Source of the DNA: a virus
Lineage: Duplodnaviria > Caudoviricetes
IMG/VR virus record: IMGVR_UViG_3300034356_000821
Span: 1 to 56,635 of that record
Reading direction: 5' to 3' (one strand)
Length of the DNA: 56,635 nucleotides
This document shows positions 3,047 through 38,278 of the stretch, piece after piece (the stretch's first letter is position 1; each line of letters starts with the position of its first letter). Below the pieces are notes generated by a model that did no database searches, was not told where the DNA came from, and saw nothing but the letters and a program-made list of their open reading frames with translations. The position numbers were made by a program, and so were the translations under genes.

Positions 3047-3065
3047 GTTGTTTCCTTTCAGGAAG

Positions 3066-3423: not shown

Positions 3424-3810
3424 TTAGTTCCAGACGTTGATGTGAGAACGTTTGTTCTCGCTTACAGTCAGTGCCACAAGACGACCTGTCTTGCATGGAT
3501 GCTCACCGTACAAGTGAACGAAGGTGTCGTACTTGTATGGGTTGTAGGTGATGGGTGTGCCGACTGTGGTGACACGATCAATGGTGATCAGGTCAGTGCC
3601 TGTCATGTCCCAATGACCAACAACACCAGCATGAACATTCTTCTTACGTTCACGAAGGACACGCTGTCGCCCTGCCTCAGACACCTTGAAGGTGGCATCG
3701 AACAGCAACACATCGTCACGATGTGCCACGACACGGCCCTTGTTCTTACCCTCAAGCGCTTTGATGCTGAAGCATTTGCGGTGCAGATTAAAGTATACAT
3801 AAACTCGCAT
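3424..3810 (-). CDS. Conserved phage protein (VYFNLH...RKKNVHA...YNPYK family)
   Basis: Recognisable motifs; strong RBS at ATG 3810. Confidence 0.8.
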   Translation of the reverse strand: MRVYVYFNLHRKCFSIKALEGKNKGRVVAHRDDVLLFDATFKVSEAGRQRVLRERKKNVHAGVVGHWDMTGTDLITIDRVTTVGTPITYNPYKYDTFVHLYGEHPCKTGRLVALTVSENKRSHINVWN

Positions 3811-3832
3811 GATGTTTCCTTTCAGGAATGAA

Positions 3833-3997
3833 TTAGGCAAAATCGCCCCGTTTGTCAAAACCAATTGATGCACAGAAAACATGTAATGTGTTTTCCCATT
3901 TTGTTTCTTCAATGCAAATAGACTTTGCTTCCCATGCAAAGCTTGCCTGAATGGTGTATGACGTATTGTCCCGCATTGTGACTGTGATTGTATGCAT
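3833..3997 (-). CDS. Hypothetical 54-aa protein
   Basis: ATG at 3997 with AAGGA RBS; read manually. Confidence 0.65.
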   Translation of the reverse strand: MHTITVTMRDNTSYTIQASFAWEAKSICIEETKWENTLHVFCASIGFDKRGDFA

Positions 3998-4015
3998 GTT
4001 GTTTCCTTTCAGGAA

Positions 4016-4204
4016 TTAATAATCTTCGTACCCATAATGGGGGGTTTGCAGTTGCTGACCGAAGCAATTGAAATATCGGTCACATTCACATACAATGTCA
4101 TAACCACCATCACTTGATTGCACCTCGATGATTTGGTGGCATGCACATGTCCACTTCCGAGTGTATGTGCCATCATCATGTTCAATGATTGTCATATCAG
4201 TCAT
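4016..4204 (-). CDS. Small Cys-rich protein (CxC...CxC...YFNCFGQ), possible Zn finger
   Basis: ATG at 4204 with AAGGA RBS. Confidence 0.7.
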   Translation of the reverse strand: MTDMTIIEHDDGTYTRKWTCACHQIIEVQSSDGGYDIVCECDRYFNCFGQQLQTPHYGYEDY

Positions 4205-4237
4205 TTTGTTTCCTTTAGGAAGGCTTGATATAAACTC

Positions 4238-4448
4238 TGTAACCCTGTGCCACAAAGCTTATGAAAGCCACATCATATAGCACCGACCCCGATGCCATGA
4301 TGTGTCCCCTATGCACATTATCATCCTCATGTGCTATGAGCAGTGTAGAACGTTACGTATCTACAATTACGCTGGCCTATTTCAGGCTGCAACATACTTG
4401 CTACATATGTTGCATCCATACTGACACCACGTTACATTTTTAAAGATC
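4238..4448 (-). ncRNA. Putative multibranched structured leader RNA with a boxA-like element
   Basis: Long basal stem and five internal hairpins found by inspection; lies between a promoter and the first ORF. Confidence 0.65.
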
Positions 4449-4480
4449 AATTTGTTGGTGACGATGCACTGTTGGCCTAA

Positions 4481-4510
4481 ATTATACAGGCTTTGCAAAA
4501 CCCCTGTCAA
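4481..4510 (-). promoter_or_regulatory. sigma70 early promoter TTGACA-N18-TATAAT
   Basis: Perfect consensus hexamers; -35 flanked by an inverted repeat. Confidence 0.85.
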
Positions 4511-4528
4511 CTGTAGGGACTTTGCAAA

Positions 4529-4549
4529 GCCTCCCCCGAAGGGGAAGCA
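4529..4549 (-). terminator. UUCG-capped hairpin after the GP88-like gene
   Basis: GCTTCCCC-TTCG-GGGGAGGC followed by TTT. Confidence 0.55.
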
Positions 4550-4554
4550 TTGTC

Positions 4555-5310
4555 TCATGCCGCTTGCAACATGAACACAGACTTAGGGGTGTCAACGACG
4601 AAGCCTGTCATATCAAGCTTTGCTTTGCCCTTGGCATACAGTGCCACAATGACGCCCTTATCCTCAAGGTGGCGAATGTCGCTGTTGTCACCACCGATGA
4701 CAGGCATGCCCTTGAACACAGCGGGTATCGATGCTTCGGTACGGAATACGACAGCGACTCGCATGCCATTGTCAATGGCCTTGTTGACATATGGCTGAAA
4801 GCCAACAACACCACTGTAGGAGAACGTCAGATCATAATTCAAAGGTAAACCTTTACGATTCACATCCTTGGTGTAGTCGTAGAATTGAACGTCAGGAAAT
4901 GCAGCAAATATGTTTACATATTCTGTGCCGTCAACATCAGTAAAACCTACAGTTTCCCAACGAATGTCTGACGTGCCATTCAAACGAACAAGCGGAATCA
5001 AGCTTTGCTTTGCAGCTTTTTTGACAAGCTGTCGAATGTTGACAACCAATTGCTGCATGAAAGTGGTTCGCTCAGTGAAAAACCACACTGTCTTATTGAT
5101 TCGACCCTGTGCCACTGTTGACATGGCACCACGCCCTGCACTGAACAAGCATGCAGTGCCACACTCTGCAATTTGTGCCATGCTGCATGTATTCCACTCC
5201 GTGGATTTGTAGGGTGCAAGATACATGATGCCAGTCAGAAAACCGAAGGTTTCGCCCTTCGATGTTTTCGCATCGGCATTGATTGACAAGAGAGATTTTG
5301 ACTTGAACAT
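4555..5310 (-). CDS. GP88-like (radical-SAM-related) Cys-motif protein
   Basis: Cx7CxxxC, RLNGTSDI, FYDYTK, LTFSYS motifs. Confidence 0.75.
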   Translation of the reverse strand: MFKSKSLLSINADAKTSKGETFGFLTGIMYLAPYKSTEWNTCSMAQIAECGTACLFSAGRGAMSTVAQGRINKTVWFFTERTTFMQQLVVNIRQLVKKAAKQSLIPLVRLNGTSDIRWETVGFTDVDGTEYVNIFAAFPDVQFYDYTKDVNRKGLPLNYDLTFSYSGVVGFQPYVNKAIDNGMRVAVVFRTEASIPAVFKGMPVIGGDNSDIRHLEDKGVIVALYAKGKAKLDMTGFVVDTPKSVFMLQAA

Positions 5311-5358
5311 GATGTTTACCTTCGGTAAGAGACAGCGGGATTGCCGTCGATGCTTTCA

Positions 5359-5388
5359 ATTGTACAGACCTTCGAAAAGCCCTGTCAA
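5359..5388 (-). promoter_or_regulatory. sigma70 early promoter TTGACA-N18-TACAAT
   Basis: Part of a ~90-bp cassette repeated at 5825-5913. Confidence 0.85.
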
Positions 5389-5396
5389 ATGCAGGG

Positions 5397-5624
5397 TTAT
5401 TTGAAACGTTTTGCTGCAACGAAGTTGCCACGGCGGTATACAGTCGCTGCATCATAGCATGCTGCCCATTGTGCAGCTTCGCTGTAGGTGAAAGTGTAGT
5501 GACGTTTTTTGAAGCCTTGACCGATTGTCATAAAACCGAAGGTTTTCTTCAGTTGCAAAGCGATTTCAGCTTGCATGATGTATGAAGCAATAGCGAGTGA
5601 TGCAATGGATGTGAGCAATAACAT
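5397..5624 (-). CDS. Hypothetical protein
   Basis: 75 aa; hairpin RBS. Confidence 0.7.
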   Translation of the reverse strand: MLLLTSIASLAIASYIMQAEIALQLKKTFGFMTIGQGFKKRHYTFTYSEAAQWAACYDAATVYRRGNFVAAKRFK

Positions 5625-5635
5625 GATGTTTACTT

Positions 5636-5827
5636 TCAGTAAGTGAAGCCGATGACGACGATTTTGTCTGCCTTGACGTAAACACAGCGGTTTATGTCTT
5701 CGACATCGACCAACTCAAACGACTTCGTCGTTCTGTCGTATGCACCTTTGATGTATACAGCTTTGCTGTCGCTTTTCCGTTTGACGTAGTCACCGGGTTT
5801 GACGTTTTTGATTGTGATGTTTTGCAT
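5636..5827 (-). CDS. Small SH3-like early protein; first gene of the early arm
   Basis: IKNVKPGDYVKRK motif; directly downstream of a promoter. Confidence 0.75.
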   Translation of the reverse strand: MQNITIKNVKPGDYVKRKSDSKAVYIKGAYDRTTKSFELVDVEDINRCVYVKADKIVVIGFTY

Positions 5828-32918: not shown

Positions 32919-35900
32919 ATGGCGTTTGGTATTAACGACAAAGAAGTTTCTACAGGCTTTGGGGCCAATGATAAAGTTGTGAGTGGTGGTTTTGGTGCAA
33001 ACGATGCTGTTGTTTCTAAGCCAACACCACAGTCTGAAGTAGACCTGACTAAGCCTGCCTTTGCTGCACCACGTCAACGTGCTACAGAGTTAAAGAAGGC
33101 TCAAGCTGTTGCCATCTCAGGTCGAGATGAAAAGAATGAAGGTCTTACTTGGAACGACCTCACAACCAATCCTAGCCTTCAAGACATTCAGAAACAGTTT
33201 CTGGAGATTCGTACAGGCAAGAAAGCTGAAGGTATTAGCGGCGTAGAGTTGTCAAATCAATTCATGTCTAGTGCTCGTGCTGATGAATGGAACACCTTCA
33301 GTAACATTGCATATTTGAATCAACTTCGTAACTCTCCGTTGCCTGACAAAGAGAAGTTGGCATTGGGTAAGCTTGTGTTTGAACGAACAAAGAGTGCATT
33401 GGAAGAAGGTGGTCAACCCGGTGCTCGTCCATATGTTGATGCAGTGACATCAGCCTTCACAGACTTGTCCAACTATGTTGGTCTTGGTGTTGGTGCTGGT
33501 TTGAAGAAGGGTGTTGCTAAAGAAGTAACCAAAGCTGCCACTCGCGCAGCATTGGGTGAGGTGGCTGAGACAGGTGTCAAAGCTAAGCTTGCTCAAGCTA
33601 TGACCGTTACACCCCTGAAGGCTGGTCTTGGTGTTGTAGGCACCGAAGCTGTCATTGGTGGTGGTCAAGCTGCTGTCGAACAGAAGGCGCAGGTTGCTAC
33701 ATCAAAGGTATTGGCTGAACAACGTCCCGATCTTGGTGTTGCTCCTAAAGAGTTTGACGACACTGCTGTTGCTGTTGCTGCATTGTTCTCTGCTGCCTTC
33801 GGTGGTGTTGAGGCCGTTGGTATTATGAAAGCTAAAGGCGGTAAGTCTGGTGCTGAACAACTCAATGATGTTCTCAAAGACAAGATTAAAACTTCAACAG
33901 ACCCTAACGCACCACCCACAAAGGTTGAACGTGTACTGACCGATCCTGTTGCACAAAATATGGACAAGGTTGTTGAAGAGTTCATGAATATTCAAGGTCG
34001 TCAGGTTTTGAATGAGGTCAATCCAGCAACAGCATTAACTGATGCAAAGATTCAGAAAGACTTGTCTGCTCGTGCTGTACGTGTAGCGTTGCACGTCATT
34101 GAACAAGACCCCACATTCCGTCTGCGTCCTAACCAGAAGACAAGCACAGCCATTGCTGAAGTGTTCTCTCAACTGGATACCATTGACGATGCGTTGCTTG
34201 AACAGGCCATTCGCAAGGAAGGGTTGACTCCTGATCAATTCGCTGCTGCTAACAAGCTGACAGTTACAGAGGCTGCTCAGGTGATGCAGCAATACTCTGC
34301 TGCTTCAAAGGTGTTGAAGCGCATGTCAGAGATTGATCCAGAATTCAAGAAGCAAGTTGATGCTTTGTTTGAAAAGCCTGATGAATATGTATCAGCACTT
34401 GGTCGCTTGGGTCAGGGTATTCAGACACTTGAGCGTGAATCAAAGGCTTGGATTGTTTCAGGCATTGGCACCACTGTCCGTAACGTCATTGGCACATCTA
34501 TTGGTCTGACATACAACTCTGCTGCTTCATTGATTGAAGGCGCTTTGTACACTGTCGGTAGAACACTGGATGGTGCTGCCAGCGGTAAGCGTATTGAAAC
34601 TGCAAAGAACAGTTTGGGCGACACCATGCGTGATGCATTCGGTGTGTATGGCTACATGGCTAAGGGTGGTTTGTCTACAGAGGTCACTGACACTTTGTTG
34701 CAACACAACCCCGCCATTCGTAACAACATATTGAGCGCAACACAGGAAAGTTCCACTAAGGAAATCTCTAAAGCTGCACAGGTCTTCAACAGCTTGAACG
34801 TAGCACAGGATGCTTTCTTCCGTAAAGCCATATTTAACGCTTCGGTTGAGAAGCATATGCGCCGTGCTGGTCTTGATATGTATGAGGTCATTGCTGAAGG
34901 TAAGACAATTCCCGCATCGGTCTTGAAAGAAGCTGCTGATGAAACGTTGAAGGCTACGTTCTCCTACACACCAAAGGCACAGAAGAAGGGTATTCAAACC
35001 TTTGAGGCTGGTGCTGAAGCTGCTGGTAACTTGTTCGTTAAAGCTGCTGAGTTCCCCGGTGGTAGCTTGCTTGCTACATTCCCACGCTTCATGTCGAACG
35101 CCATTGCTTTCCAATATCGATACAGCGTGTTCGGTGCTATATCGGGTGCTGAAGACTTGGCTCAGGGTGCATTAATGAAGGCTGCTGGTTCTTCTGGTGG
35201 TGAAGCTCTCATCCGTAAAGGACAACAGAACATTGCCAAGGGTGTTGTTGGTACTGCTGCATTGGCTGCTGCCTATGACTACCGCATGAACAACCAAGAC
35301 ACTGAATGGTACAACATGAAGAACGACGATGGTTCTACTGTTGACACTCGTGCCATCTTCCCATTGGGTCCAACACTGGCTGTTGCTGACTTCATGGCTA
35401 AGCGTAAACTTGGTCTTGAACCAAAGACTGCCGAGGCATTGGAAGCCGTTGTTGGTATGAAGATGCCTGCTGGCACACAGAACCAATTCCTTGATCAAGT
35501 GTTTGCTGCGTTCTCTTCTGAGAAAGAAGCTGATAAGTTGGAAGTGGCTGTTGGTAAAGTTCTTGGTGACTTCACTGCACGTTTTGCTCAACCGTTTGTG
35601 TTTAAGAGCGCTTACGAATTCTTAGATTTGTTCCGTGAGGAAGGCGCTATTCAGCGTGACCCTAATGTGTTGACTGCTGAAGGTGGTGGTGGTCGCTTGG
35701 TTGAAGCTGCTGTCAATCGTGTGCAGTCTAAGTTGCCTGTGCTGAAAGAAGATTTGCCTGAAGCAATCCCTCGTTTGCGTGAAGGACCAGTATATAAAGA
35801 AGGTGAATTCTTTTATAGCTTGGTTGGTGTTAGAGAAACTCCCAATAAGACTCCTGCTGAGAAAGAGATTGTTCGTCTTGGCATTGACCCTTTCAAACTG

Positions 35901-38153
35901 TATGGCCCTTCATCTGGTGACAGAATGTATGATCGTGCCTTTGTTGAGAACGCCAACCCTATGGTGGTTGCTGCCATTGATAGGACAATGGCTAACAACA
36001 GATACAAGGCTTTGTCACCCACTGAACAGAAGTTGGCATTGACCAATGTTGTTCGTGACGTTACAGGTATTGCTCGTGACAAGACAGACGGTAAGTTCAT
36101 GTCTGAAGACCTGACTCGTGTTAAGAAGATGCGCTTTGACAAACTGTCTGCTGATCAACGCAAGGTTATTAACGAACGTTATGCCAAAGACAACAAAGGT
36201 GTAACTCTCGAAGAAGCTAAAGACTACCGCGCTGTCGATAAGTATGAAGCTATGTTGGGTAACTTAGCCTTTGCCAAAGGTGGTCTTGCTGCCAAGATTG
36301 TAGGTAAGAAGGTTGCTGGTGAAGCTGTTGATTCTGTGACAAGCAAGCTTAAAAGCCTGACACCAACACCAACGCCTGCTGCTGACAACGCAGCAATCGA
36401 TGCCATCATCAACAAAGAACTTGGTGCTCCATCACCCGCCATCGATCAAACAGCTAACATGTTGATGGGTAAGAAGCCTGTGCTTCCTAAAACCACAGCA
36501 AAACAAACGCCTTCGCTTCCTGAAGAGCCAGCAACACCTGCACCAACCACACCAGAAGCGCCTGTGTTGAGCCAAACAGATGATGCCCTGCCTACCCTAC
36601 CTGCACAGACAATGGAGGCTCCTACGCTCTCTAAAGCCTTTGCTGATGAAGACTATGTCAAGGGTGAAGAGGCTATGCTTGAGTCGTACACACCTGCTCA
36701 GCTTAAGAGTTGGAAGATAGCCAACCCTGAAGACTACGAAAACACTCTTCATAGCTTTACTGGTCAAGCTAAAGGACTGAAATATTCTGAAATGCCACCA
36801 CAGCCTTTTGCTAAGAAGACTGATGAGGCTGCTGAGTCTTTGGTTGATGAAGTTGAATATGATATGGATGGTAATCCTGTTAGTGTTGGTGGTGTTGCTG
36901 TTAAGAAAGCTACACCAGTTGCTGATGAGTATGGTGTTGACCTTAAGTACTTGTCGGGTGATGCCAACTCTGTAGTTAAGAAAACCAGTGTTGCTCAACG
37001 TAACGCTGCTGTGTCTGCCATCAAAGAGACACGTGAAGACAACTTCTTCAAGCTGCGTAACAATGATAAGTTTGCTTCAGTAGATGATGATGTGTTGGGT
37101 GTGGTGTTGGGTGACTATCGCTACTCACGTGGTGCTGAACTCAACCCTAAAGACCCTGACATGCTTGCTGACGCTGTAAAGATGGCTGGTCAATATCAGA
37201 AACGTCTTGATGTTTTGCGTGAGAAGTATAAAGATGTACCACCTGTGAAGCTGTTCCACGGTCAAGGTACAACCTCTGCCATTGAACCAATTAAGAAGTC
37301 AGGCTTCACGGACCCGTCTAAGCGTGATGAGTTCTTCCATTCTGAAATGATGGTGGGTGCTCCATCGTTTACCAAAGACTTGAACCTTGGCTTTCGAGGT
37401 ACGCCATTTGGTGGAACAAGACCAGAGAACTATGTTGTCACAGAGATTCCTTATGCTGATTATGTGTTCAACAAAATCAATATGTCACCTGAGAATTATG
37501 ACAAGAAAGATATGAACACCATTCTTCGTGCCGTCACTGGCGCACCCGGTGTTGTTCGTCCTGTTGGCTTACCTCGTGCTGGCTTCTTAGAGACTGAAGA
37601 CATGATGCTGGAGGCTGAGAAGCTTCGCGTCAAAGGTAGAGATGCTAAGTTGCGTAGTGGTGAAAAGGATGTTGCTCAGGTGCTGGACACTGGTGGTAAA
37701 GGTCTGAGTCGAGCAACGATGAAGGGTGAAGAAGAAGTTGTGTCAGAGTATATGAAGCTTGCTCGTACCACTCCAGACCCTAAAGAGAAGATGAAGCTGG
37801 CATACATGTCCTACACTGGCATCAAAGACTTGATGAACAATTATCTGGATATGGCTACAGCAACGTCTACGAAGTCTGGTCTTGGTCAACAATATCAAGC
37901 TGCCATTAACAACTTTGCAGACTACTCAGGTATTCAGCGACAGATGCGTGAAGTCGCTGACATCTTGGATGCTGGTGGAGCTAAGCAGAAAGCACAGAAC
38001 CTGTATGAACTTACAGACAAGTTGAAGAAGTTTCAACAGTCTGAACCTGCAATCTCCACAGCGGTTGATGAAAGCAAACGAATTAAACCACTGGACGAGG
38101 TGAGAAAGTTTGTACCAAAGCTGGCAAAGGGTGGTCTAGCAAGTCGTCGGTAA
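32919..38153 (+). CDS. Large ejection protein (1744 aa) with C-terminal ADP-ribosyltransferase-like module
   Basis: Last gene of the virion arm; FGxND x3 at the N-terminus; LFHG...SFT...ETE; three AKGG motifs. Confidence 0.8.
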   Translation: MAFGINDKEVSTGFGANDKVVSGGFGANDAVVSKPTPQSEVDLTKPAFAAPRQRATELKKAQAVAISGRDEKNEGLTWNDLTTNPSLQDIQKQFLEIRTGKKAEGISGVELSNQFMSSARADEWNTFSNIAYLNQLRNSPLPDKEKLALGKLVFERTKSALEEGGQPGARPYVDAVTSAFTDLSNYVGLGVGAGLKKGVAKEVTKAATRAALGEVAETGVKAKLAQAMTVTPLKAGLGVVGTEAVIGGGQAAVEQKAQVATSKVLAEQRPDLGVAPKEFDDTAVAVAALFSAAFGGVEAVGIMKAKGGKSGAEQLNDVLKDKIKTSTDPNAPPTKVERVLTDPVAQNMDKVVEEFMNIQGRQVLNEVNPATALTDAKIQKDLSARAVRVALHVIEQDPTFRLRPNQKTSTAIAEVFSQLDTIDDALLEQAIRKEGLTPDQFAAANKLTVTEAAQVMQQYSAASKVLKRMSEIDPEFKKQVDALFEKPDEYVSALGRLGQGIQTLERESKAWIVSGIGTTVRNVIGTSIGLTYNSAASLIEGALYTVGRTLDGAASGKRIETAKNSLGDTMRDAFGVYGYMAKGGLSTEVTDTLLQHNPAIRNNILSATQESSTKEISKAAQVFNSLNVAQDAFFRKAIFNASVEKHMRRAGLDMYEVIAEGKTIPASVLKEAADETLKATFSYTPKAQKKGIQTFEAGAEAAGNLFVKAAEFPGGSLLATFPRFMSNAIAFQYRYSVFGAISGAEDLAQGALMKAAGSSGGEALIRKGQQNIAKGVVGTAALAAAYDYRMNNQDTEWYNMKNDDGSTVDTRAIFPLGPTLAVADFMAKRKLGLEPKTAEALEAVVGMKMPAGTQNQFLDQVFAAFSSEKEADKLEVAVGKVLGDFTARFAQPFVFKSAYEFLDLFREEGAIQRDPNVLTAEGGGGRLVEAAVNRVQSKLPVLKEDLPEAIPRLREGPVYKEGEFFYSLVGVRETPNKTPAEKEIVRLGIDPFKLYGPSSGDRMYDRAFVENANPMVVAAIDRTMANNRYKALSPTEQKLALTNVVRDVTGIARDKTDGKFMSEDLTRVKKMRFDKLSADQRKVINERYAKDNKGVTLEEAKDYRAVDKYEAMLGNLAFAKGGLAAKIVGKKVAGEAVDSVTSKLKSLTPTPTPAADNAAIDAIINKELGAPSPAIDQTANMLMGKKPVLPKTTAKQTPSLPEEPATPAPTTPEAPVLSQTDDALPTLPAQTMEAPTLSKAFADEDYVKGEEAMLESYTPAQLKSWKIANPEDYENTLHSFTGQAKGLKYSEMPPQPFAKKTDEAAESLVDEVEYDMDGNPVSVGGVAVKKATPVADEYGVDLKYLSGDANSVVKKTSVAQRNAAVSAIKETREDNFFKLRNNDKFASVDDDVLGVVLGDYRYSRGAELNPKDPDMLADAVKMAGQYQKRLDVLREKYKDVPPVKLFHGQGTTSAIEPIKKSGFTDPSKRDEFFHSEMMVGAPSFTKDLNLGFRGTPFGGTRPENYVVTEIPYADYVFNKINMSPENYDKKDMNTILRAVTGAPGVVRPVGLPRAGFLETEDMMLEAEKLRVKGRDAKLRSGEKDVAQVLDTGGKGLSRATMKGEEEVVSEYMKLARTTPDPKEKMKLAYMSYTGIKDLMNNYLDMATATSTKSGLGQQYQAAINNFADYSGIQRQMREVADILDAGGAKQKAQNLYELTDKLKKFQQSEPAISTAVDESKRIKPLDEVRKFVPKLAKGGLASRR

Positions 38154-38202: not shown

Positions 38203-38278
38203 TGGCCTACCCCGTAGGAGTCGAACCTACAACCTACGGATTTGGAGTCCGTTGCTCTGCCAGTTGAGCTAGAGATAG
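38203..38278 (-). tRNA. trnW: tRNA-Trp(CCA)
   Basis: Complete 76-nt cloverleaf; anticodon loop CTCCAAA; GTTCGA T-loop; encoded CCA end. Confidence 0.95.

Follow-up and report, generated by a model that had tools for sequence, protein, structure and literature searches.

Bacterial ribosomal RNA (rRNA) operons (rrn) carry hairpin-boxA-boxC signals in the leader and in the 16S-23S spacer, and these signals load NusB/NusE, NusA, NusG, SuhB and S4. In lambda-type nut sites, boxA is followed by a boxB hairpin which is bound by the N protein. Beyond lambdoid phages, control by Nus factors and boxA has been reported in rRNA, in CRISPR arrays and in a small number of cellular genes (PMC5725501). RNA can also act without boxA. 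The put RNA of HK022, which is about 70 nucleotides (nt) long and has two stem-loops, renders polymerase termination-resistant on its own, without boxA or protein factors (PMC9378689). The conAn2 element of pLS20 and other Gram-positive conjugative elements, with a size of 260-600 base pairs (bp), acts in cis at the head of a long operon, and EAR is likewise a large leader RNA (PMC8191782). Together, put, conAn2 and EAR give a precedent for RNAs that stand at the head of long operons in mobile elements and cause processive antitermination (PMC9378689, PMC8191782). Here we describe a leader RNA in the virus record IMGVR_UViG_3300034356_000821. The window, that is, the whole stretch of 56,635 nt which was analysed, is the entire IMG/VR record and is rated complete by CheckV. 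On its minus strand, directly behind a promoter, a boxA-like motif is followed by a structured RNA with two pseudoknots, which we propose as a possible antitermination leader.

The RNA is carried by compensatory changes among its relatives. A search of IMG/VR with the GP88-family protein encoded next to the leader gave 172 related stretches, of which 80 were kept (L002-L081), a 20-mer of the big hairpin gave 17 additional loci, and nhmmer located the leader in 64 loci, of which 51 are unique. The structure was read from compensatory changes in two alignments (A1 and A2) and then counted. In a plain MAFFT alignment, 93.4% of the cells pair, compared with 29.5-46.0% when the 3' partners are slid; 32 of the 40 pairs vary on both sides, and the covariation score of 0.605 (at most 0.159 after sliding) was reached by none of 500 shuffles. 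A covariance model built from A2 (R1) matched the window exactly once (4268-4450, 151.9 bits) and each of 59 other contigs once, with 90 sources searched. In the R1 alignment of 52 distinct rows, the corresponding values were 96.5% against 28.5-46.2% of cells paired, 34 of 40 pairs varying on both sides, and a score of 0.673 against at most 0.157, again reached by 0 of 500 shuffles. This alignment was fitted to nested helices and is hence biased towards them, yet the pseudoknot helices, which lie outside the model, are paired in 88.5% (pseudoknot 1, PK1) and 96.5% (stem S1 of pseudoknot 2, PK2) of the cells. A second viral scan added 24 further contigs, all matched by R1 and one of them only partially, and the family now comprises 83 other IMG/VR contigs besides the window, which belong to freshwater HMO-2011-type podophages and have one copy per genome. 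An earlier, sequence-only reading of the window had proposed a structured RNA here and named covariation among homologues as its check, and such covariation is what the alignments hold.

The strand of the RNA can be read from the same alignment. Cells with G-U number 244 and cells with A-C only 6, in line with the G-U bias that the sequence-only reading had seen on the minus strand, and pairing falls from 96.5% in the sense direction to 85.0% when the other strand is read. This asymmetry and the drop in pairing therefore indicate that the structure under selection is that of the sense RNA. Minimum-free-energy (MFE) folding of the minus strand also surpassed dinucleotide shuffles, as had been expected, both for 4238-4448 (z -3.51, 2 of 200 shuffles as good) and for 4204-4475 (z -3.39, 0 of 200). 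The opposite strand likewise beats shuffles (z -3.15), and therefore folding energy alone cannot separate the strands.

The conserved architecture is a linear series of domains, in the order P2/P3, two H-type pseudoknots, the P5 hairpin with its GGGU loop, and P6/P7 (Table 1). In Domain I, all 5 pairs of P2 vary on both sides with 100% of the cells paired. The base of P3 takes two mutually exclusive forms, UCAGUA with UGAAAU (25 of 25) and GUCGGNN with NNCUAU (27 of 27, the NN pairs covarying). In 25 of the 52 sequences, AGUA (4422-4419) faces GAAA (4383-4380), and in the remaining 27 this place is taken by a Watson-Crick helix that covaries. The first form looks like a candidate for the loop E/sarcin-ricin (bulged-G) motif, in which an AGUA strand stands opposite a GAA strand with helices on its flanks. 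In PK1, all 7 pairs of P4 vary on both sides (93.4% paired), as do 2 of the 3 pseudoknot pairs, in which the misses come mostly from a one-column offset in group 2. In PK2, which abuts PK1, two-sided variation is found in all 5 pairs of S1 and in 3 of the 6 pairs of S2, the latter with 100% paired. A short linker separates PK2 from P5. Both stems of P5 vary on both sides in 6 of 7 pairs (outer stem 95.9% paired, inner stem 98.4%), the three G of its loop are invariant, and the 3' bulge of some group-1 relatives is enlarged by a 2-nt insertion.

For the 3' domain in groups 1 and 2, RNAalifold gave 17 pairs with 2 two-sided and several one-sided changes, and P6 never varies; the input was 29 of the 32 sequences, as L028, L092 and L094, with long insertions, were omitted. 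Group 3 yields the same topology, with 12 of 20 pairs varying on both sides. A local hairpin GCUU-UCAU-AAGC in place of P6 was considered and rejected, because it clashes with P7 and is uncompensated in L021 and L041. In 13 of the 19 group-3 leaders, the 3' strand of P6 overlaps with another hairpin, GAAGC-AAUGUC-GCUUC, behind which stands UCUUUUCC (e.g. L025:4040-4062), and this arrangement could be a terminator/antiterminator switch.

This fold differs from the sequence-only reading, in which a basal stem closed a single multibranch loop with five hairpins. Three of those hairpins, 4344-4365 (P4), 4313-4334 and 4269-4304 (P5), are conserved and covarying, although the second is really one stem (S2) of PK2. 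The hairpin at 4388-4414 does form in the window, but its relatives have shorter or different hairpins. The hairpin at 4375-4387, which had been taken as boxB-like, is not a conserved helix, and groups 2 and 3 are unable to form it. Most of the 3' half of this hairpin (GCC, 4376-4374) belongs to the 3' arm of P2, and its CUGAAAU stands opposite AGUAUGG at the base of P3. The three basal stems appear in the MFE structure of the 211-nt excerpt and are gone from that of the 272-nt leader. The outer one, UGUAAC/GUUACA, is specific to the window (mean best 5'-3' helix 3.71 versus 3.65 with permuted partners, a value reached by 372 of 1000 permutations). In the other two, GUGUCA/UGGCAC and UAUGGA/UUCAUA, one-sided changes go uncompensated in the alignment, and UGGCAC is missing from all 19 group-3 sequences.

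The boxA-like motif at the 5' end, which the sequence-only reading had also picked out, is strongly conserved. The boxA consensus GYTCTTTAANA was derived for gamma-proteobacteria (PMC5725501), and it is fitted by 43 of the 52 distinct leader sequences. Among L002-L081, a perfect match stands at the 5' end of the element in 42 of the 50 model-positive loci and a match anywhere in only 1 of the 30 model-negative loci, and opposite-strand matches were found in 0 of the 80. In three group-2 loci (L016:4183, L032:1126 and L035:2011), the boxA at the element is imperfect (GAUC...), and the same strand has a second, perfect consensus match, GCUCUUUAAGA, about 280-320 nt downstream of it.

For comparison with cellular boxA, five arbitrarily available Burkholderiales genomes were used, and the loci were scanned with Rfam. 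The raw match counts were no higher than those of a reversed control pattern, and therefore only the placement of the matches is informative. GUUCUUUAAAAA sits on the sense strand in the 16S-23S spacer of three Comamonadaceae (Acidovorax, Variovorax and Giesbergeria), after two spacer transfer RNAs (tRNAs), about 250 nt before the 23S gene and with a hairpin just upstream. This placement holds for 7 of the 8 Rfam-scanned loci of the three genomes, and the eighth (L298) has no rRNA nearby. The commonest phage boxA with its flanks, the 16-mer cuGUUCUUUAAAAAuu present in many leaders, is identical to the Comamonadaceae spacer motif, and the nearest cultured homologue of the GP88-family protein is that of Limnohabitans phage DC31 (62.7% identity). 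From these two points, as far as five arbitrarily available genomes can tell, the host of the phage clade is probably a Comamonadaceae-like betaproteobacterium. DC31 (PQ492658.1) also shares a 14-mer upstream of its early genes, without the structured domain; its boxA-like GUUCUUUAAAAAUU is at L220:985-1007, about 65 nt upstream of an early coding sequence (CDS), with an E value of 0.018.

Table 1 Features of the leader RNA and its surroundings in the window
Feature	Position	Strand	Description
GP88-family gene	4555-5310	-	Pfam PF17338, E 1.3e-37; 5' neighbour of the promoter, ends at 4555
G+C-rich hairpin	4547-4530	-	CUUCCCC-UUCG-GGGGAGG; just past the GP88-family stop codon; terminator-like, short U run only
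Sigma-70-type promoter	4510-4481	-	TTGACA 4510-4505, 18-nt spacer, TATAAT 4486-4481; 12/12 matches
P0, small 5' hairpin	4469-4458	-	GUG-CAUCGU-CAC; pairs covary in group 1 (GC 8/AT 9; TA 16/CG 1)
boxA-like motif	4448-4438	-	GAUCUUUAAAA; core UCUUUAA.AA (nearly) invariant in 52 distinct sequences
Structured RNA	4429-4223	-	About 215 nt; after boxA, stops before the generic ribosome-binding-site (RBS) cassette
Domain I	4429-4373	-	P2 UGGU (4429-4426)/GCCA (4376-4373); junction GUC (4425-4423)
P3	4422-4416/4386-4379	-	AGUAUGG opposite CCUGAAAU; cap is the variable hairpin 4415-4387
Pseudoknot 1 (PK1)	4371-4344	-	P4 UGUAGA (4365-4360)/UCUACA (4349-4344); loop ACG (4358-4356) with upstream CGU (4371-4369)
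Pseudoknot 2 (PK2), compact H-type	4342-4313	-	S1 UGCUC (4342-4338)/GAGGA (4328-4324); L1 AUA
PK2 S2	4334-4329/4318-4313	-	GCACAU/AUGUGC; L3 is the conserved UGAUA (4323-4319), with invariant positions
P5, long hairpin	4303-4270	-	Outer ACAUCAU/AUGAUGU, inner GGCAUCG/CGGUGCU (7+7 bp); loop GGGU 4289-4286
P6, 3' domain	4268-4223	-	GCUU (4268-4265)/AAGC (4226-4223); encloses P7
P7	4262-4254/4238-4230	-	AUAAGCUUU/AGAGUUUAU; inner UGGC/GUUA, loop ACAGG
Generic RBS cassette	4221-4210	-	UUCCUAAAGGAA; outside the RNA element
Cys-rich open reading frame (ORF), 62 amino acids (aa)	AUG 4204-4202	-	First gene after the leader; outside the RNA element
gp82-like gene, 128 aa	3424-3810	-	Pfam Phage_L5_gp82, E 2.7e-41; PHROG 586, function unknown

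The promoter is as perfect as the sequence-only reading had stated, and it is kept in the 17 group-1 leaders. Two near-identical palindromes 29 nt apart flank or overlap it, CUUUGCAAAG (4529-4520) and UUUUGCAAAG (4500-4491, inside the spacer), and they resemble the operators of a repressor. The promoter itself stands third among three tandem minus-strand promoters of one family (5905-5876, 5388-5359 and 4510-4481), which is characterized by TTGACA, an 18-nt spacer and TAYAAT; a further copy lies at 56066-56037 on the same strand, with TACACT. The palindromes at the 5388 and 5905 promoters are CGAAGG variants, and both promoters have a near-identical initial transcript (UGAAAGCAUCGACGGCA...) which forms a hairpin and contains no boxA. 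Because like hairpins follow the two upstream promoters, we assign P0 in the window's group to the promoter family and not to the RNA element. In related loci, the promoter segment is repeated 2-4 times. Groups 2 and 3 (e.g. L015:3790-3845 and L025:3760-3820) are without the TTGACA/TATAAT promoter. A UCUCUAUAGGG-like motif is conserved there about 45 nt ahead of boxA and is followed by an invariant GUGA-loop hairpin (YGCU-GUGA-AGCR) with compensated U-A/C-G and GCC..GGC changes. In these groups, the UCUAUAGGG motif is a candidate transcript start. An equivalent of the G+C-rich hairpin past the GP88-family gene is found at the same place in the other groups, and in the window this hairpin was not called in the terminator scan.

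The large terminase of the window has 79% identity to its counterpart in the spring-water podovirus MW202701.1 and 60-73% identity to the terminases from Puniceispirillum phage HMO-2011 and the Roseobacter CRP phages, and these identities therefore mark the source phage as a freshwater podovirus of the HMO-2011 type, not a lambdoid phage. It encodes an integrase, a T7-like primase-helicase, a DNA polymerase and ribonucleotide reductase (RNR) genes on the strand of the leader RNA. The leader heads the long same-strand gene run with the primase-helicase, DNA polymerase and RNR genes; this leftward early/replication operon occupies 4204 to 1, and in a circularly permuted record it would go on from 56635 down to about 38200. 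Two good terminator-like hairpins were seen on the minus strand here, one within the operon just upstream of the RNR large-subunit gene (42980-42963, 7 bp then UCUUUUU) and one at its end (38197-38171, 11 bp), just past the tRNA gene at 38206-38278. The 1744-aa ORF at 32919-38153 on the plus strand has no Pfam match above the cut-off and no PHROG match.

The RBS cassette behind the leader is a generic part of this operon. It precedes at least 6 other minus-strand genes between 2661 and 5642, which are successive small early genes, and it has 17 matches against 3.95 expected, with 0 of 100 shuffles giving as many. As a palindrome, UUCCUGAAAGGAA(AC), it occurs on the minus strand at 2661-2673, 2849-2861, 3052-3064, 3816-3828, 4003-4015, 4209-4221 and 5630-5642. 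The Shine-Dalgarno (SD) sequence forms part of a 4-5-bp hairpin, on its 3' arm, and L025 and L006 have compensatory changes in this hairpin (UUACC/GGUAA).

The leader also behaves as a unit among relatives. In two loci (L012 and L022), boxA and the fold are both missing although the GP88-family and gp82-like genes on either side are retained, and in L012 the promoter cassette, likewise retained, runs straight into the RBS cassette. Because the two parts are absent together while the flanking genes are kept, boxA and the fold are one insertable module and move together. The first gene after the leader differs among relatives (one type, not found in the window, starts MYTTRRGGFDR), and a gene-specific regulator is therefore disfavoured. 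In a divergent subgroup (L239, L243, L240 and L033), the RNA is not directly downstream of a GP88-family gene: about 770 nt separate the two in L033, and the other loci have no GP88 homologue within about 1.1 kb upstream. A strict link of the RNA to this gene, which is also widespread without the RNA, is therefore not seen. With R1, no copy was found in the whole records of MW202701.1, Limnohabitans phage DC31, HMO-2011, CRP-1 and HTVC033P, in which the best match (13.9 bits) lies inside a CRP-1 CDS and has no boxA. A blastn search of 3800-5400 against the named-phage collection gave one match, confined to the GP88-family gene. A scan of genome contigs (596 Gb) with a 17-mer of P5 returned at least 120 stretches, and in the 80 loci fetched there was no real copy of the model, just fragments of 16-27 nt (E 0.06-0.86); a 17-mer is too short for 596 Gb, and the scan is therefore uninformative on prophages.

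As for function, an early promoter directly upstream and a strongly conserved boxA at the 5' start make an antitermination leader, which the sequence-only reading had also suggested, a reasonable reading. We propose, at even odds, that the RNA heading the early/replication operon acts in cis as an antitermination leader which recruits Nus factors and contains a new RNA domain. Host RNA polymerase would initiate early at the promoter, and the rrn-type boxA would be transcribed about 30 nt into the transcript. Host NusB-NusE (S10), and thereby the other Nus factors, would be loaded by boxA onto the elongating polymerase, and the domain would remain tethered to it via the nascent chain. The domain would then be the phage-specific part of the complex, in the role of boxB plus N in lambda or of the put RNA in HK022, and the modified polymerase would read through the Rho-dependent and weak intrinsic stops of the operon. 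Antitermination, Nus binding, tethering and read-through are all steps which we infer from the sequences. More tentatively, the leader might represent a new class of RNA-based processive antiterminator, in which an exact copy of the host rRNA boxA is fused to a self-folding double-pseudoknot RNA that binds the elongation complex directly or via a phage protein; a non-lambdoid aquatic phage would thereby take over the ribosomal antitermination complex without N. We regard this as possible but doubtful.

Several points weigh against antitermination. First, the boxA of the window fits only 10 of the 11 consensus positions, with A at position 2 as in 6 other distinct sequences, and two more sequences (AUUCUUUAACA) deviate at position 1. 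Second, terminator-like sites in the operon are not enriched over shuffles (18 versus 14.3 +/- 3.5, and 11 versus 6.7 +/- 3.0). Third, no N-like protein is consistently encoded downstream, no profile search aimed at N having been made. Fourth, the module is dispensable in the close relatives L012 and L022. Finally, known Nus-dependent antitermination does not require a 215-nt double-pseudoknot domain, so that another role is possible, and the terminator-like hairpin overlapping P6 in group 3 fits an attenuator better.

One such role is that of a stand-alone functional RNA, for example a trans-acting small RNA, an anti-defence decoy, an RNA-protein particle or a ribozyme, in which boxA would do what it does for rRNA and either protect a long untranslated transcript against Rho or provide a Nus-modified polymerase as folding chaperone; such a chaperone role of the rrn complex has been reviewed (PMC8632103). 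The invariant nucleotides cluster in loops and junctions (GUC.G, the P4 loop, PK2 L3 and the GGGU loop of P5), as is usual for RNAs that make tertiary contacts or bind partners, the nucleotide conservation of the 3' half is about equal to or above the protein identity of the flanking gene, and the module travels as a unit, indifferent to the gene that follows. In groups 1 and 2, however, there is no terminator or conserved 3' end past P6/P7, and the RNA continues straight into the RBS cassette. In contigs from RNA libraries, the region is also continuous with the downstream gene. Parts of 4205-4468 are present in X20 and X22 (X19 has the flanks only), and record 19 of X22, a metatranscriptome contig, spans 4205-4381 plus 70 nt of the downstream gene; these contigs, with 85-99% likeness, may be relatives or DNA, and they carry no information on ends, strand or level. 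The single copy per genome also speaks against a stand-alone RNA, which we consider rather unlikely.

We think it less probable still that the leader is a riboswitch-like or protein-binding attenuator, which would sense a ligand or a phage or host protein and set downstream transcription or translation, with boxA as an accessory. The complex, pseudoknotted, aptamer-like core with invariant unpaired bases would suit such a device, and so would the group-3 hairpin (GAAGC-6 nt-GCUUC) with its U-rich run, which is mutually exclusive with P6; no competing terminator is present in groups 1 and 2, the window included, and the SD hairpin is the generic cassette of the operon. A possible client is the gp82-like gene, which is found 1-3 genes behind the RNA in 45 of the 50 model-positive loci and is present in only 2 of the 30 model-negative loci. 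This co-occurrence may largely track relatedness, however, and the presence of gp82 without the RNA in L012 and L022 led us to reject it as an obligatory partner; neither PHROGs nor the PDB gave a function for the protein. Assignment to the riboswitch class, which calls for an aptamer tied to the genes of one pathway and an expression platform, was likewise rejected, since the first downstream gene is variable, none is metabolic, and the competing hairpin is limited to those 13 group-3 leaders.

A non-RNA explanation, whether a small protein gene, a site acting at the DNA level (such as an origin or an array for protein binding) or a set of chance hairpins, is scarcely credible: the opposite strand does fold better than shuffles and short ORFs (15-36 codons) occur in every leader copy, but no ORF keeps its frame or ends across the 51 homologous leaders, with indels of 2 nt and longer falling inside, and the compensatory changes, the strand-asymmetric pairing and the occurrence in 83 other contigs all count against it. 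For example, the 27-codon frame from AUG 4282 was rejected as a gene because the 2-nt indel in P5 breaks it in relatives, and the statement of the sequence-only reading that no credible ORF is present thus holds.

The RNA family is undescribed in Rfam, as had been supposed. The only match of the whole window to Rfam 15 at gathering level is the tRNA gene, and 4000-4700 gave four matches far under the cut-offs (E 1.2-4.1, 14-18 bits). In the literature searched, we found no report of a boxA-led structured leader in a phage group other than the lambdoids. A catalogue of 8,495 candidate structured RNAs from IMG/VR is without mention of boxA in its main text (PMC10690425), and it may hold fragments of the leader RNA. 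Whatever its function, the leader is a new structured RNA with good support: it spans about 215 nt, contains two pseudoknots and occurs in 52 distinct natural variants. The exact match to the Comamonadaceae spacer boxA also provides a testable host prediction for an uncultured phage clade. If the antitermination reading is true, abundant HMO-2011-related lake phages would use an RNA of their own to take over the rRNA antitermination complex, and the very short list of antiterminator RNAs (put, EAR and conAn2) would gain a new member.

Among the known systems, the rrn signals have several features in common with the leader. Its boxA sequence equals the spacer boxA of three Comamonadaceae genomes, a hairpin stands just upstream of boxA in all groups (in group 1 also behind the sister promoters without boxA), and a long, highly structured, untranslated RNA follows. 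In contrast to rrn, the leader precedes protein-coding genes and has a double-pseudoknot domain in place of rRNA. With lambda nut, it shares the presence of boxA, the position just downstream of an operator-flanked early promoter, an integrase-carrying phage and, likely, the use of Nus factors. However, the analogy drawn by the sequence-only reading, boxA and then a boxB hairpin, fails: no boxB-type hairpin is conserved 3' of boxA, the proposed boxB is about 50 nt away from boxA, and the only boxA-adjacent hairpin lies upstream of it, in the rrn-type order. No N-like gene follows consistently, and the phage is an HMO-2011-type podovirus. The put RNA and the leader are both structured nascent RNAs just behind early promoters, but the leader is three times larger, with five helical domains, two pseudoknots and a boxA, and there is no match in sequence or model. 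For its size and its knots, none of nut, put, conAn2 and EAR offers a parallel. Like conAn2 and EAR, it is a large leader, proposed to act in cis, at the head of a mobile-element operon with a small upstream gene adjoining (PMC8191782), whereas those elements belong to another phylum and have no boxA and no reported pseudoknots, and the upstream GP88-family gene of the leader is widespread without the RNA. On the proposed reading, the leader would belong among the RNAs that reprogram elongation, and its fold is itself new.

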